Counted from the stretch's first letter, positions 27,246 to 60,617 are shown. The stretch is DNA of 64,000 nt from an uncultured Chloroflexia bacterium (GCA_963774265.1 CAVZDU010000007.1:224001-288000); one strand, 5' to 3'. Program-made: numbers and translations. Notes: generated from the sequence alone by a model not told the origin.

Positions 27246-28650
27246 ATGACCCTTTCCACTGGTAGTCGACCGGTCGAGCTGAAGATCGCGTACATCGGCG
27301 GCGGAAGCCGCGAGTGGGCGCGGAAGCTCATGTTCGACCTGGCGCTCTGCCCCGACCTGGCCGGGCAGGTGGCGCTTTATGATATCGATGTGCCTTCGGC
27401 AAGGCTCAATGAGGCGCTGGGCAACTGGCTCCAGGAGCAGCCCGGCGTCGTATCCGCCTGGCGCTATACTGCGGTCGAGCGGCTGGAGGAAGCGCTGCGC
27501 GGGGCGGACTTCGTGGTGCTCTCGATCCAGCCCGGCACGCTGGAGTGTATGGCCGAGGAAATCGCCCTCGCCGAGCGGCACGGGATGTTCTTCCCCGTGG
27601 GCGACACGACCGGCGCGCCAGGGCTGGTGCGCGGGCTGCGCGCGGCCACGATCTACGCAGGCTTCGCACAAGCCATCGACGCGATCTGCCCGCGCGTGGG
27701 TGATCAACTACACCAATCCCATGACGATTTGCACGCGCACGCTGACCCGCGTCGCGCCGGGGCTGAAGGTCTTTGGCTGCTGTCACGAGGTGTTCGCCAC
27801 CCAGGCGATGCTCGCAAAGCTGGCCGGCAAGGCCCTGGCGGTCGAGACCCCGCGCCGCGATGAGATTCACGTCAACGTGACGGGCATCAACCATTTCACC
27901 TGGATCGACCGCGCCTCCTATCGCGACGTGGACCTCCTGGCGCTTCTGCAGCATCACATCGGAGAGCCGGGCGTGCTCCGGCCCTACACGCGGGAGGAAG
28001 TCGAGAGCTGGGGCAGCTGGTTTCACAGCGCCGAACAGGTCAAGTTTACGCTTTTTCAGCGGTTCGGCCTCCTGGCTGCCGCGGGCGACCGCCACCTGGT
28101 CGAGTTCCTGCCGGGCTTCATCCGCTCGCCGGAGGAGCTCTACCGCTGGGGGGTCATCCGTACGCCGGTGGCCTGGCGCATCGGCCGCTGGCGGGACGCG
28201 CCCGGCAAGACGCGCGACCTGATGGCCGGCCGGGAGCCGCTGCGGCTGGAGCCGTCGGACGAGGAAGGGGTCAGGCAGATCCGGGCGTTGCTCGGCTTGG
28301 AAGACCTGGTCACCAACGTGAATACGGCAAATCGGGGCCAGGTGGAGAATCTGCCGCGCGATGTGGTGGTGGAGACCAACGCCCGTTTCAGCCGCGACGA
28401 AGTACGGCCGCTGGCCGCGGGCGCCTTGCCTCCCGGCCTGCAGCCCCTGATCGCCCGGCACGTGGCCAATCAGGAGCTCATCGTCGAGGCCAGCCTGGCC
28501 CGGGATCGAGACCTGGCTTTCCAGGCGGTCCTGGGCGACCCGACCAACCGGCTGCCCCTGGATGAGGCCTGGACCATGTTCCTTGAGATGCTGGAGGCCA
28601 GCCGCGAGTTCCTGCCGGGTTGGCCGAGCGCCGGGCCGGCGCTTGAATAG
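27246..28650 (+). CDS. GH4 alpha-galacturonidase (LplD-like), frameshift near 27690
   Basis: KIAYIGGGSREWA, VGDTTGAPG, WVINYTNPM, FGCCHEV, GINHFTW, AAGDRHLVEF. Confidence 0.85.
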
Positions 28651-28675
28651 GGCGCCAACCGTATTCGACGTGCGA

Positions 28676-29833
28676 TCAGGCCAGCCGCTCCCGGAGCCAG
28701 GCAAAGGCGGCGGCCTGCATCTCTATATCGAACCTGTGTGGGCCGGGATAGAACTGGCCTGTGTAGGCTTCGGGGTGGCCCACGCCCGTGAAGTGGCCGG
28801 CCAGCCGGGCATCGGCTGCCCTCATGCCGGGTTCAGTGAAGAGGTCATCTCCCAGCAGGTACTGCACCAGTAGCGGCGACGGCGCTCGGCAGGCCGCCAG
28901 GTCGGGCCAGTCACCGTGCCGCGACCACCCGAACGGAAACAGCATCCAGGTGTGCGACGATATGTTCTGGTCGAGCAAGCCCTCATACGTGGTCATCAGC
29001 CCCACGATGGCCGCGGCCGCGATGCCATTGTGGGTGGCGTTGAGCAGCGCCGCCCGGTTCCCGCCACCGGAAAGCCCCAGGCAGCCTACCCGGTCGGGGC
29101 GCACGTCGGCCCGCGATAGAAGGTAGTTGACCGCAATCCGGTCTTCATGGCTGACGACTCCGGCCAGGTTGGTCCCCAGGACATTGCAATATTTGGATAC
29201 GGTGTGTTCGTGCAAACCCGCTGCAGCGTTGTATTCCGCGATGTCCGGCGGCGCACCCCAGGCGGGATCGCTGCCGGCCTGCAATAAAGCACGGCCCCCG
29301 GCGCGCACCTCCGCGGGCAGCGTCTCCAGCGGAAAGCGCCGGCTGCCCCACAGAAAGGCATCGGGCGCCAGGACGACGAAGCCTGCGGCTGCCGCGGCAT
29401 TGGCCCAGGCCCTGCCGCCGTAGTACTGCTCGCGGTACCGCGCCAGCACGTCCGGGGGCTTGTCAGGGCCATCCGTGATGGCTCCATCGGCTATTTTCTC
29501 CTTGCCGTAATACTTGAACGCGCCGTGGTCGTGCAAGGCTACCAGGGCGGGCAGAGGTCCCCGGGCATGGGCCGGCTTGAGGAGGTAGGCGTGCGTGCGG
29601 GGTCCGTAACTCACCGACCAGGAAAGCTCCTCGCCGGCCAGATCCCCGCGTTCCCAGCGCCGTTCCACGCGGACGTCCAGCGGCATCTCGGGCCCCCGGC
29701 AGAACCCCAGGGCCTCGCGCACCAGCGCTTGTGTCCCTGGGCCGGGCGCCGCAAGAGGATAGAGCGGACCTTGCCGCCGCGCCTCGTCTACCAGGTCACT
29801 GAAGATGCCGAGATGTGTGTAGTGCTGTGTCAT
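28676..29833 (-). CDS. Alpha/beta hydrolase (dienelactone hydrolase/carbohydrate esterase-like)
   Basis: ALHDHGAFKYYGKEK, nucleophile elbow GLSGGG, YPGPHRF. Confidence 0.8.
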   Translation of the reverse strand: MTQHYTHLGIFSDLVDEARRQGPLYPLAAPGPGTQALVREALGFCRGPEMPLDVRVERRWERGDLAGEELSWSVSYGPRTHAYLLKPAHARGPLPALVALHDHGAFKYYGKEKIADGAITDGPDKPPDVLARYREQYYGGRAWANAAAAAGFVVLAPDAFLWGSRRFPLETLPAEVRAGGRALLQAGSDPAWGAPPDIAEYNAAAGLHEHTVSKYCNVLGTNLAGVVSHEDRIAVNYLLSRADVRPDRVGCLGLSGGGNRAALLNATHNGIAAAAIVGLMTTYEGLLDQNISSHTWMLFPFGWSRHGDWPDLAACRAPSPLLVQYLLGDDLFTEPGMRAADARLAGHFTGVGHPEAYTGQFYPGPHRFDIEMQAAAFAWLRERLA

Positions 29834-29885
29834 GCTCTGGTCTCCGTTTCAGGTGGGGGCGGTGCGCTCTCCGATAACCTCGTTG

Positions 29886-29894
29886 TGGTATAAT
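29886..29894 (+). promoter_or_regulatory. Extended -10 element of the hybrid regulator gene
   Basis: TGgTATAAT about 55 nt upstream of ATG 29949. Confidence 0.6.
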
Positions 29895-29948
29895 CGTGGC
29901 ATCATATATCGGCAGCTTGCCGGGGGCAAATGCCGATTGAGTTTTCCT

Positions 29949-58333: not shown

Positions 58334-58353
58334 AGATTGAAGATTGAAGATTG
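58321..58353 (+). repeat. Heptamer tandem repeat (GATTGAA) x4.7, overlapping the GH88 stop codon
   Basis: GATTGAG GATTGAA GATTGAA GATTGAA GATTG. Confidence 0.85.
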
Positions 58354-58361
58354 GGGGTACG

Positions 58362-59143
58362 ATGGCAGCCAATGAGCGCGTGGCGTTGGTGACCGGGGCG
58401 AGCCGGGGGATCGGCCGTGCGATTGCGGTCGCCCTGGCCGGCGCTGATCGGCGTGGCTGGACGGTGGTGGTCAACTACCGGAATAACGCCGAAGCCGCGG
58501 CCCAGACGCTGGCCCAGGTGCAGGCCGCGGGCGGGCAGGGCGTCATCGTCCAGGCGGACATTGCCGATGCGGCCGACCGAGAGCGCCTGGTGCGCGAGAC
58601 ATTGTCCCGCTACGGACAGATCGATCTGTTGGTCAACAACGCGGGCATGGCCCGCGCCAGCGCGTGGATATGCTCCAGACGACCGAGGCCAGCTATGATG
58701 AGGTCATGGCCGTCAACTTGAAGGGGCCGTTCTTCCTGACGCAGCTCGTGGCCAGGGCGATGATCGAGCAACCCGCCACTCCGGGCCGCGCGATCGTCAA
58801 CATCGGCTCGATGAGCGCCTATACCAGCAGCACGAACCGGGCGGAGTATTGTCTGTCCAAGGCCGGCATCGGGATGATGACCCGGCTCTACGCCGACCGG
58901 CTGGCCGAATACGGCATCAGCGTCTTTGAGATCCGGCCGGGGATCATCGCAACCGACATGACGAGTGCGGCGCAGGAGAAATACGATCGGCTGATCGCCG
59001 CGGGGCTGACTCCGTTCCGGCGCTGGGGCCGGCCAGAAGACGTAGCGCTGGCCGTTGAGATGATTGCGGGGGGACGCCTCCCCTTCTCAACCGGGGAAGT
59101 GATCAACGTTGACGGCGGCTTCCATCTGCACCGCCTGTCTTGA
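58362..59143 (+). CDS. Short-chain dehydrogenase/reductase, frameshift near 58655
   Basis: [41 protein letters not shown]. Confidence 0.92.
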
Positions 59144-59154
59144 GGGAGAGTGAG

Positions 59155-60617
59155 ATGGCTGGTTATCGCCGCGTGGCGACCTTGAGGACATCGTCCGCAC
59201 TGACCGAACACCTGGCCACGATCGGAGCCGATCTACCTTTTGACGACAAGATGCAGATCGGCGCCCACGCACCGCTGGCGCAGCCGTACCGCCTGGCCGG
59301 CGGCGACATTGTCGGCAACCGGTTCGCCGTCCTGCCGATGGAAGGCTGGGACGGGACCGCGGACGGCCGTCCGAGCGAGCTGACCATGCGGCGCTGGCGG
59401 CGGTTCGGCGCGAGCGGCGCCAAGCTGATCTGGGGCGGCGAGGCGGTAGCCGTGCGGCACGACGGCCGTGCCAATCCCAACCAACTGCTCATCAACGAGG
59501 CCAACCTTGGCGAGCTGGCCGCGTTACGGCAGGGCGCTCGTGGACGAGCACGAGGCGCAATGGTCCAGCACCGACTTGCTGATCGGCCTGCAGCTCACCC
59601 ATTCCGGCCGGTTTGCACGGCCAAACGGCAAGATCGCTGGAGCCGGCGATCCTCTACCACCATCCCTGGCTCGACCGCAAGTTCGGCATCCCAGCCGACT
59701 ACCCACTGATGAGCGACGACGAGATCGCCCGGCTGGTGGATGACTTCGCGGTCGCCGCGTGCCTGGCTCAGCGCGCCGGCTTCGCGTTCGTGGACGTCAA
59801 GCACTGTCACGGCTACCTGGGGCATGAGTTCCTGAGCGCGGTGGATCGGCCAGGGCGCTATGGGGGCAGCTTCGAGAACCGGACGCGCTTCCTGCGCGAG
59901 GTGGTGGCGGCCATCCGGGCGACTGCCGCGGGCCTGATGATCGGCGTGCGGCTGAGCGCGTTCGACTTCATGCCGTTCCGGCCAGGGCCGGATGGGGTCG
60001 GTGTGCCAGACTGGCGGGATCCAGGGGCCGGTGCGAACGGGCGCGAGGCCCGTCCCTACCGATACGCGTTTGGCGGCGACGGCACGGGGTTGGGCATCGA
60101 CCTGAGCGAGCCGCGCGCATTCCTGGATCTGCTCGTCGAACTTGACATCCCCCTGGTCTGTGTCACCGGCGGCAGCCCCTACTACAACCCGCACATCCAG
60201 CGCCCCGCGCTTTTCCCGCCCTCCGATGGCTACCGGCCGCCGGAAGACCCGCTGGTCGGCGTTGCGCGACAGATCGCGGTCACCGCGCAGCTCAAGGCGC
60301 ATCGCCCTGAGCTGCTGGTCGTCGGCTCGGGGCTCTCCTATCTCCAGGAGTGGCTGCCGAACGTGGCCCAGGCGGTCGTGCGCAAGGGCATGGCCGACTT
60401 CGTCGGGCTGGGGCGCATGGTCCTGTCATACCCCGACATGGTCGCCGACGTGCTGGCCGGGCGGCCGCTGCAGCGCAAGCGCATCTGCCGCACCTTCAGC
60501 GATTGCACGACCGCGCCGCGCAACGGATTGGTGTCCGGCTGCTACCCGCTGGATGAGTTCTACAAAGAACGGCCGGAAGCCGCACAGCTGAGACGAGGCC
60601 GCCCAACAAAGACGTAG
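59155..60617 (+). CDS. NADH:flavin oxidoreductase (Old Yellow Enzyme-like TIM barrel), frameshifted
   Basis: [52 protein letters not shown] tail. Confidence 0.9.

Follow-up and report, generated by a model that had tools for sequence, protein, structure and literature searches.

A putative cytoplasmic acidic-oligosaccharide utilisation locus with three conserved add-ons in an uncultured Chloroflexia bacterium

We analysed a stretch of 64,000 nucleotides (hereafter, the window; 63% G+C) from an uncultured Chloroflexia bacterium, corresponding to positions 224001-288000 of contig C7 (GCA_963774265.1 CAVZDU010000007.1) in a 5.5-Mb, 10-contig genome with a completeness of 84% (G000). Positions 27246 to 60617 of the window hold 25 genes, 24 on the + strand and one, encoding an alpha/beta hydrolase, on the - strand. 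We propose that these genes form a composite locus for the cytoplasmic utilisation of acidic oligosaccharides, which would feed an ordinary uronate pathway encoded elsewhere in the genome and which carries three conserved add-ons. From the sequence, we give this reading a probability of roughly 60%. The locus is the sole one of its kind found in the genome. A preliminary description had counted about 24 mostly co-oriented, tightly packed genes with an Opp-type importer and the uronide-cleaving enzymes discussed below, and our inventory bears this out.

Genes were annotated by a Pfam scan of 182 + strand stop-to-stop open reading frames (ORFs) of at least 55 aa between 26.9 and 61 kb and of 72 additional ORFs from the flanks and the - strand, followed by a loose Pfam pass and by NCBIfam and Protein Data Bank (PDB) sequence searches; genes below lie on the + strand unless stated otherwise. 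The importer is of the Opp/Dpp type and comprises two ATP-binding cassette (ABC) ATPases with ABC_tran and oligo_HPY domains (34342..35405, with one frameshift near 35200, and 39943..40965), a family-5 solute-binding lipoprotein (35505..37628; SBP_bac_5 pieces in three frames, several frameshifts) and two frameshifted permeases, one OppB-like (37729..38726; BPD_transp_1_N and tblastn synteny) and one OppC-like (38830..39909; OppC_N and BPD_transp_1). The N-terminus of the binding protein, read directly, shows a twin-arginine leader, a lipobox and a Pro/Thr-rich linker.

The glycoside hydrolase (GH) and polysaccharide lyase (PL) families encoded in the locus point to galacturonides and glucuronides as substrates. 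For the former, GH4a (27246..28650; Glyco_hydro_4 and 4C, one frameshift near 27700-27860) is an NAD-dependent glycosidase closest to the Bacillus subtilis alpha-galacturonidase LplD (PDB 3fef, E 7e-85). The intact gene for a PL22 oligogalacturonate-lyase family protein (49801..51030, with the start probably near 49873) aligns with 384 of the 386 positions of the Pectate_lyase22 profile (E 1.1e-40), and the polygalacturonase-type GH28 (55870..57180), also intact, matches Glyco_hydro_28 at E 7.8e-45 and the NCBIfam PglA model at 360 bits, under its cut-off of 600. GH105 (54750..55866), a YteR-like unsaturated rhamnogalacturonyl hydrolase, was found as Glyco_hydro_88 pieces in three frames with at least two frameshifts; its ortholog in the close relative G301 matches 4wu0 (E 3e-114) and YteR (1nc5, E 8e-83). 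For the latter, there is an intact GH67 alpha-glucuronidase (45866..47890; N, M and C domains, E 1e-18 to 1.7e-145) and a second GH4, GH4b (47942..49261; GH4 and GH4C, two frameshifts), which is closest to Thermotoga AglA (1obb, E 7e-43) and TM0752 (1vjt, E 5e-36) and whose ortholog in G301 reaches 410 bits with the AglA model, for which 650 are required. Both GH4 genes carry PF02056 and PF11975. The unsaturated glucuronyl hydrolase GH88 (57200..58333; two frameshifts) was missed by Pfam at the strict threshold, gave a weak GH88 match in the loose pass and is similar to PDB chains 2zzr and 3anj (both at E 2.9e-13) and to 1vd5. The single - strand gene (28676..29833) encodes a GxSxG alpha/beta hydrolase that is a candidate carbohydrate esterase, with weak matches to DLH, BAAT_C and Peptidase_S9 (E 0.006-0.03); its orthologs in G301 (83% identity) and G305 (67%) adjoin PL22-like genes. 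In agreement with the preliminary description, we found no signal peptide in the eight enzyme N-termini that were read (GH4a, U2, GH67, GH4b, PL22, U4, GH28 and GH88, where U2 and U4 are the two family-less proteins described below), and in all eight the mature fold begins at once, without a hydrophobic leader.

Based on these assignments, we propose the following scheme. Oligomers made outside the cell would be captured by the lipoprotein and imported through the Opp/Dpp transporter. In the cytoplasm, GH28, GH4a and PL22 would convert oligogalacturonides to galacturonate and the 4-deoxy-5-keto-uronate monomer (DHU), GH105 would open the unsaturated galacturonate-rhamnose units of rhamnogalacturonan I, GH67 and GH4b would strip alpha-linked (methyl)glucuronate, GH88 would free DHU from unsaturated glucuronides, and the esterase-like hydrolase may remove acyl or methyl esters. 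U2 and U4 would create the unsaturated ends that GH88 and GH105 require. The monomers would then enter the ordinary isomerase route, encoded elsewhere, through UxaC, reductases of the UxaB/UxuB type, UxaA/UxuA, KduI, a PfkB kinase and Eda. The import-then-degrade design put forward in the preliminary description thus fits the lipoprotein binding protein, the cytoplasmic appearance of the enzymes checked and a gene order that is intact in three relatives, and these ordinary parts of the locus imply that the host bacteria feed on imported acidic oligomers.

We then asked where the downstream steps are encoded. As the preliminary description had remarked, the canonical genes are not recognisable in the locus itself: no UxaC, UxaA/B, UxuA/B, KduI, KdgK or Eda family match was obtained by the Pfam scans between 26.9 and 61 kb. 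Elsewhere in the genome, uxaC lies at C7:349640 (with a split GH2 gene, an MFS transporter, an FGGY kinase and a ROK regulator as neighbours), uxuA at C7:188560 next to an SDR (short-chain dehydrogenase/reductase) gene, and eda at C7:517636 about 2 kb from a PfkB kinase (C7:517-521 kb), while an intact altronate/galactarate-type dehydratase is found on contig C3 and a Mannitol_dh-family reductase on C9. A KduI/IolB-family gene is located at C7:214807, 9 kb before the window, in a region (G000:C7:213600-223300) that it shares with a LacI gene, a second Opp-type ABC system and a xylose-isomerase-like TIM barrel; at about 209.6-211 kb the same contig encodes an IS66 transposase. With these families encoded elsewhere, their local absence is no reason to expect a new pathway, and the step from missing genes to an undescribed pathway, which the preliminary description had taken, fails. 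The interpretation given there is half right and partly supported.

The closest known counterparts of the locus are those by which pectinolytic bacteria use oligogalacturonides and unsaturated uronates: the type found in Dickeya, with TogMNAB, Ogl, KduI, KduD, KdgK and KdgA, and the yes/yte/lpl rhamnogalacturonan genes of B. subtilis, with YteR and LplD. Shared with these are an ABC importer, a leaderless PL22 of the Ogl family, a YteR-like GH105, a GH28 and an alpha-galacturonidase-like GH4, as well as control by a LacI regulator and by a kinase with an AraC-type response regulator. In contrast, the importer here is of the Opp/Dpp type (solute-binding protein family 5) and not CUT1, the glucuronide enzymes GH67, GH88 and AglA-like GH4 are mixed in, and a radical SAM enzyme, two family-less toroid proteins, two Gfo/Idh/MocA oxidoreductases and an old yellow enzyme (OYE) are added. 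Viewed as a canonical Ogl-type locus, it has the importer and the cytoplasmic PL22, whereas KduI/DhuI, KduD, KdgK and KdgA are not encoded in it.

A combination of locus comparisons and a phylum sample was used to find the parts of the locus that travel together. U2 (41339..43990; about 860 aa) served as the anchor. From 273 confirmed relatives in species genomes we kept 80 U2-centred loci, all in metagenome-assembled genomes of Chloroflexota and 43 of them with full flanks, and counted those in which a given locus protein had a tblastn match of at least 45% identity in the 10 kb on either side of U2. Importer genes are the most frequent companions (ATPase 2 in 60, the OppC-like permease in 56, the OppB-like permease in 53 and the binding protein in 43), followed by the radical SAM gene (36) and GH4b (25); PL22 (7), HAD (6), GH67 and U4 (5 each), GH105 and GfoA (4 each) and GfoB (3) are far less common. 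Radical SAM and GH4b genes co-occur in 21 of the 80 loci, and an ABC gene flanks the radical SAM gene in 24 of the 36 loci that have one. Counts for SDR, OYE, GH88 and GH28 in this set were discarded, as in the window these genes lie 12-17 kb from U2, beyond the flanks; OYE-centred and GH28-centred searches replaced them.

The phylum sample consisted of 301 evenly drawn genomes, comprising G000 and 300 others. U2 is present in 5 of these and orthologs of the radical SAM enzyme (45-52% identity, E <= 1e-150) in 8; both occur in G000, G094, G207 and G061. In the other four genomes with the radical SAM gene (G001, G027, G185 and G219) U2 has no match, yet the unit of binding protein, permeases, ATPases, radical SAM and GH4b is kept. 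In G207, the order is ABC, radical SAM, GH4b, PL22, cupin, U2. The tightest unit is the importer with the radical SAM enzyme and GH4b, and U2 is a frequent fourth member that is always in uronate company. The order of the whole locus is intact in G301, with tightly packed genes (gaps of -70 to +30 nt, and one of 285 nt before GfoA), and is also kept in G302 and G303 at 76-96% identity; U2 itself is 75-79% identical in these three close relatives. G301 additionally carries an 870-aa U2 paralog (27% identical) and a 386-aa gene of no assigned family between GH67 and GH4b (L008:16369-20150), an insertion absent from the locus under study. Within G000, no further copy of GH67, PL22, GH105, GH28, GH88, U4, radical SAM or OYE reached 90 bits in tblastn, and a U2 paralog was found in two pieces (37-46% identity) at G000:C2:652937-654906. 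The preliminary description had recommended examining this neighbourhood across Chloroflexota, and both the core module and the redox tail discussed below recur there.

The radical SAM enzyme of this core (44027..45836) has an N-terminal B12-binding domain followed by the radical SAM core. Its PF04055 match reaches 52.8 bits, while PF02310 scores 29.6 bits in the broken copy, under the cut-off of 32.1; the copy in the window is frameshifted near its N-terminus (one frameshift near 44320-44440), orthologs measure 580-620 aa, and both domains are present in 119 of the 120 homologs listed. The cluster-binding motif is Cx4Cx2C and not the canonical CxxxCxxC, both here and in 37 of 38 orthologs from related loci, and just one further cysteine is conserved, which makes an auxiliary cluster unlikely. 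At least 1,429 homologs were found at E <= 1e-20; those that carry a name in their source are called by generic radical SAM names, "hypothetical protein" or BchE. The enzyme reaches no curated NCBIfam family: all 19 models listed for it (ApyD, PhpK, HpnJ, BchE and BzaD among them) are far under their cut-offs, the best being ApyD at 105.6 bits against 750. The nearest solved chains, AprD4 (E 3e-6) and OxsB (E 5e-5), include the class B cobalamin radical SAM enzyme OxsB, with which the locus enzyme shares the order of B12 domain and core and a distant sequence similarity; unlike that class, it has the Cx4Cx2C motif, belongs to no curated family and is encoded in a sugar-import and breakdown operon rather than a biosynthetic cluster. 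A full-text literature search, which did not cover subscription journals, found no paper on a radical SAM enzyme in a uronide or GH4 operon and no description of a B12-type member acting in carbohydrate catabolism.

The enzyme travels with the transporter and GH4b. We consider it most likely that it performs radical chemistry on the imported sugar, and probably not on a protein; it might alter a residue or substituent of the sugar so that GH4b or U2 can cleave. It could instead be a maturase that modifies GH4b, U2 or the binding protein, in the manner of the anaerobic sulfatase-maturating enzymes. The best curated matches, ApyD and a subfamily of C-methyltransferases of ribosomally synthesised and post-translationally modified peptides (92 bits), do modify peptides or proteins, and among operons without U2 the gene is nearly always beside the same GH4 (4 of 4 such genomes). 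However, both scores are weak and far under their cut-offs (750 and 282 bits, respectively), the radical SAM gene of G094 is not adjacent to a GH4b ortholog, and the nearest solved relatives act on small molecules. No small ORF resembling a precursor peptide came up, though no search was aimed at one. We regard a maturase as improbable. As a separate observation, G061 has four radical SAM genes in tandem after its OYE module (L113:12669-18518), two of the B12 type, one SPASM and one plain; these are 25-26% identical to the locus enzyme and probably represent an unrelated cluster.

U2 and U4 (51033..52581; about 490-515 aa, one frameshift near 51850) had been singled out in the preliminary description as two unknown toroid proteins, and structure models agree. 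Neither gave a meaningful match to Pfam (E up to 1), to NCBIfam or, by phmmer and profile search, to the PDB, and by these searches they belong to no described PL family. For U2, 984 homologs at E <= 0.001 were obtained among 7,998 scored candidates, and when 1.84 billion representatives were searched with a profile, 2,665 passed E <= 0.001 and 984 passed E <= 1e-30; the 120 homologs listed are about 850-900 aa long, have no Pfam domain and are "hypothetical" wherever named. U4 has 1310 homologs, also without a Pfam domain. In a protein atlas both fall in unnamed clusters, with a sub-threshold ulvan-lyase lead (0.81-0.82) for U4.

The AF2 model of U4 (pLDDT confidence 85.5) is an (alpha/alpha)6 toroid followed by a beta-sandwich, and Foldseek ranks the PL33 lyase BT4410 (8r71) highest (E 9e-7, probability 1.0, TM score 0.41-0.51), followed by GAGases, PL17, DS-epimerase, PL8, PL15 and PL12 (E 9e-7 to 1e-3 and TM 0.39-0.51 over the whole ranking). 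At full length, U4 aligns with DS-epimerase at a VIA-align Z of 13.5. In the model of U2, GH2_N-like and Ig-like beta domains (the first 310 residues) precede a helical toroid and a beta-sandwich; residues 317-828 align with the chondroitinase 9o3q (Z 10.1) and the DS-epimerase 6hzn (Z 9.7), a suggestive match of the toroid plus beta-sandwich fold. Foldseek with whole U2 matched the N-terminal GH2-like sugar-binding domain alone (TM about 0.1) and was set aside as uninformative on the catalytic part. The invariant residues N425-H426, Y484 and H532 of U2 fall in the toroid part, where the model has a pLDDT below 50, and their spacing may resemble the Asn/His...Tyr...His sets of PL15 and PL17. 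In their overall two-domain fold, U4 and the last 550 residues of U2 are like the known toroid lyases and epimerases (PL33 BT4410 8r71, the GAGases 8khv, 8khw and 9o3q, PL17, PL15, PL12, PL8 and dermatan-sulfate epimerase 1, 6hzn), whereas in sequence neither protein resembles any solved chain or Pfam family and U2 has its additional domains in front. Their genomic company includes GH88 and GH105, which require lyase products, and there are also fusions: the U2 relative P0373 (990 aa) is joined to a GH88/105 domain and the U4 relatives P0164 and P0171 to esterase domains, which fits enzymes acting just before unsaturated-uronide hydrolases on esterified acidic glycans. Based on these models and on gene context, we regard U2 and U4 as belonging to undescribed families whose members most likely act on uronates as lyases or, possibly, as epimerases.

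The locus ends in a redox tail. Two frameshifted Gfo/Idh/MocA oxidoreductase genes, GfoA (52585..53584; N and C domains) and GfoB (53633..54726; from Pfam), precede GH105, and GH88 is directly followed by an SDR of the PRK12745 type (58362..59143; adh_short, one frameshift) and a long, divergent OYE-family flavin oxidoreductase of about 488 aa (59155..60617; Oxidored_FMN at 81.9 bits against a cut-off of 27, two frameshifts). The best NCBIfam matches of GfoA are all far under their cut-offs, as are those of the GfoB ortholog (IolG, 108 bits; levoglucosan dehydrogenase, 87 bits), and the OYE, whose nearest solved chain is 7o0t (E 1e-19), reaches no curated equivalog. The SDR ortholog in G301 scores 330 bits on NF009386 (cut-off 250); on the KduD model TIGR01832 this ortholog scores 167.5 bits, below the 338.85 required. 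G301-G303 keep U4, GfoA, GfoB, GH105, GH28, GH88, SDR and OYE as intact ORFs at 76-96% identity, save that G302 lacks U4 and GH105 there. In the phylum sample, the OYE is rare (4 of 301 genomes: G000, G094, G012 and G061) and is confined to genomes from families in which U2 or the radical SAM enzyme also occurs. All six other OYE genomes have SDR-OYE together with GH88 and/or the Gfo pair: G301-G303 and three of three from the sample, which add two further families. In G094 the order is GH88, SDR, OYE, a MetE-like gene (Meth_synt_2), GfoA 1.2 kb past OYE, a 712-aa weakly U4-like gene, a Gfo gene and a TIM barrel; G012 has GH88-SDR-OYE at a contig end; and G061 has Opp ABC genes and then GfoA-GfoB-SDR-OYE, and the stretch read there contains no GH88. 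In three Roseiflexaceae/Chloroflexales loci, GfoA-GfoB (57-63%) come after U2. The preliminary description had held that its proposal would fall if a complete, co-induced canonical pathway lay elsewhere and if, in addition, the redox genes had no conserved linkage to uronidases; canonical genes do lie elsewhere, but the linkage is conserved, and on these terms the proposal is not refuted.

In the simplest reading, judged from gene families, the tail would provide a KduD/DhuD-like reduction with helper enzymes: GH88-SDR-OYE and the two Gfo enzymes would reduce or otherwise tame the reactive keto-aldehyde DHU, with the SDR acting like KduD or DhuD. The sole routes for DHU that the abstract of PMC12838403 names run through KduI or DhuI and on to KduD or DhuD. 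The module resembles that route in having GH88 (unsaturated glucuronyl hydrolase) directly upstream of an SDR, the family of KduD and DhuD; it differs in having neither of the isomerases KduI and DhuI, an SDR that fits NF009386 and not KduD, a long divergent OYE next in line and two Gfo/Idh/MocA genes that travel along.

Another explanation, in line with the preliminary description, is that GfoA, GfoB, SDR and OYE (perhaps with U4 and HAD) form an undescribed uronate or DHU route without KduI/KduD and UxaC; in one possible version, oxidation at C1 by Gfo, or dehydration, would precede ene-reduction by OYE and keto-reduction by SDR. The conserved redox-uronidase linkage speaks for such a route, as does the finding of no UxaC or KduI-family gene in G012 or G061, whose assemblies are both about 91% complete. 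The restricted distribution of the OYE, the SDR score under the KduD cut-off and the routes named in the cited source point the same way, and the full-text search found no paper that names both an unsaturated glucuronyl hydrolase and an old yellow enzyme. However, G000, G094, G301 and G303 carry UxaC and a KduI-family gene, so the module is no replacement there. Furthermore, G012 and G061 are fragmented into about 400 contigs each, which makes gene absence weak evidence, a GH88-SDR pair is simplest as the known reductase step given that KduD and DhuD are themselves SDRs, and the product is not deducible from sequence. We find a separate route rather unlikely and prefer KduD/DhuD-like reduction with helpers.

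Several observations weigh against our overall interpretation. The canonical genes found elsewhere, the kinase and reductases included, were assigned at the family level, and the gene of the KduI family might be IolB instead. The model that covers the SDR is named "3-ketoacyl-ACP reductase" and is not that of KduD. Genes more than 10 kb from U2 were not countable in the 80 loci, and about 25 of these loci repeat a single near-identical arrangement from Caldilineaceae that has no radical SAM gene, so that the counts overstate independence. As to the toroid proteins, the U4 toroid aligns with inverting glycosidases and sugar epimerases (GH8, GH76, cellobiose 2-epimerases and others; VIA-align Z 14-15.7) at least as well as with lyases (13.5), and by its model U4 could be a hydrolase; lyase, epimerase and hydrolase readings are all possible. 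The model of U2 is poor (pLDDT 68, pTM 0.46, and pLDDT below 50 around the conserved motifs), its lyase-like match has a Z of just about 10 with a root-mean-square deviation of 9.5 A, and homology between U2 and U4 was rejected as too weak (hhalign probability 11%, E 0.0027, over a shared motif stretch). Finally, long ORFs cover 0.44 of the locus against a contig median of 0.62, which places it at the 12th percentile of 49 windows.

Compared with intact orthologs in G301 over about 7,900 aligned residues, most genes are broken by 22 frame changes within 33 kb, a lower bound given that further breaks in the binding protein and the permeases were not exactly counted. Both the number of breaks and the low coverage are what a decaying array of pseudogenes, out of use, would show. 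Nevertheless, the frame segments keep 62-98% amino-acid identity to the intact orthologs, no large deletion was seen, and stop codons occur only where alignments overrun a frame change or a gene start. U2 is in one frame overall, save for an out-of-frame stretch of about 250 nt (about 43250-43510) with two TGA codons. At 43249-43251, where U2 leaves its frame and the sole break covered by reads, a 151-nt short-read contig that is identical at 150 of 151 positions has one base fewer, and removing one base there makes the U2 residues match the family consensus. Three soil runs from one study matched 6-8% of sampled words, and no RNA run was found; contigs from the soil runs laid on 41339-46338 are mostly relatives below 90% identity and show neither habitat nor expression. 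Outside the locus, the housekeeping gene for transketolase and a GH2 gene are split likewise, and 84% completeness in just 10 contigs fits an unpolished assembly. We conclude that the frame breaks are very probably assembly errors and that decay is very improbable; because the frameshifts are most likely errors of this kind, the locus is probably functional.

Three conserved enzyme sets in this locus have undescribed chemistry, and the linkage of the OYE redox module to GH88 across families is what this locus adds. A joint proposal, in which a Cx4Cx2C radical SAM enzyme, GH4 and a U2 lyase would act on an imported acidic oligosaccharide while GH88-SDR-OYE-Gfo would form a DHU route independent of KduI, DhuI and UxaC, is one that we put forward tentatively and with more doubt than belief. 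Pectin, glucuronoxylan and other acidic glycans make up a large share of the plant and microbial carbon of soils and waters, where Chloroflexota are abundant. The nameless families are large, as seen in the homolog counts above (at least 1429 for radical SAM, 2665 representative clusters for U2 and 1310 for U4). Should U2 and U4 be lyases, they would be the founding members of new polysaccharide lyase families, and a radical SAM enzyme in carbohydrate catabolism would widen the known scope of that superfamily. The GH88-SDR-OYE module is a candidate third route for DHU, in addition to those that use KduI and DhuI.

The remaining genes of the locus are mostly regulatory. A LacI-family regulator (29832..31104; Peripla_BP_3 and Peripla_BP_1, one frameshift near 30510) is followed by a sensor histidine kinase (31509..32888; HATPase_c and HisKA), a frameshifted response regulator with an AraC-type output domain (32897..33803; HTH_18 and HTH_AraC) and a small receiver-like protein (33927..34307; Response_reg at E 2.9e-4, below the curated cut-off). 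The last is kept in 5 of the 80 related loci, among them L008, L013, L016 and L024, at 42-67% identity. A HAD-family hydrolase gene (49345..49876; Hydrolase_like, Hydrolase and HAD_2, one frameshift), scoring 77 bits on TIGR02253, under the model cut-off, lies between GH4b and PL22. A promoter and terminator scan of 33.5-53.4 kb was uninformative: it found 2 promoter-like and 12 terminator-like sites, where 4.3 and 10.4, respectively, would be expected.

Upstream in the window, positions 16184-24848 encode a LacI regulator, a CUT1-type ABC transporter (SBP_bac_1 and two permeases), a GH8 and a GH3 whose N-terminal half is in another frame; this looks like a xylo-oligosaccharide set that would complement GH67. 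Between it and the uronide locus are two - strand genes (24930-27146), one with an InlB B-repeat-like domain and the other with weak matches to metallophosphatases and purple acid phosphatases. At the start of the window (3-2874), about 40 kb from the radical SAM gene, are two URO-D-family genes, a xylose-isomerase-like TIM barrel and a cupin. On the other side (60730-62537, - strand), the locus is closed by an RNase H gene with a Cauli_VI-type N-terminal domain and then an APH-family phosphotransferase, after which come a split DegV gene and a GNAT acetyltransferase.

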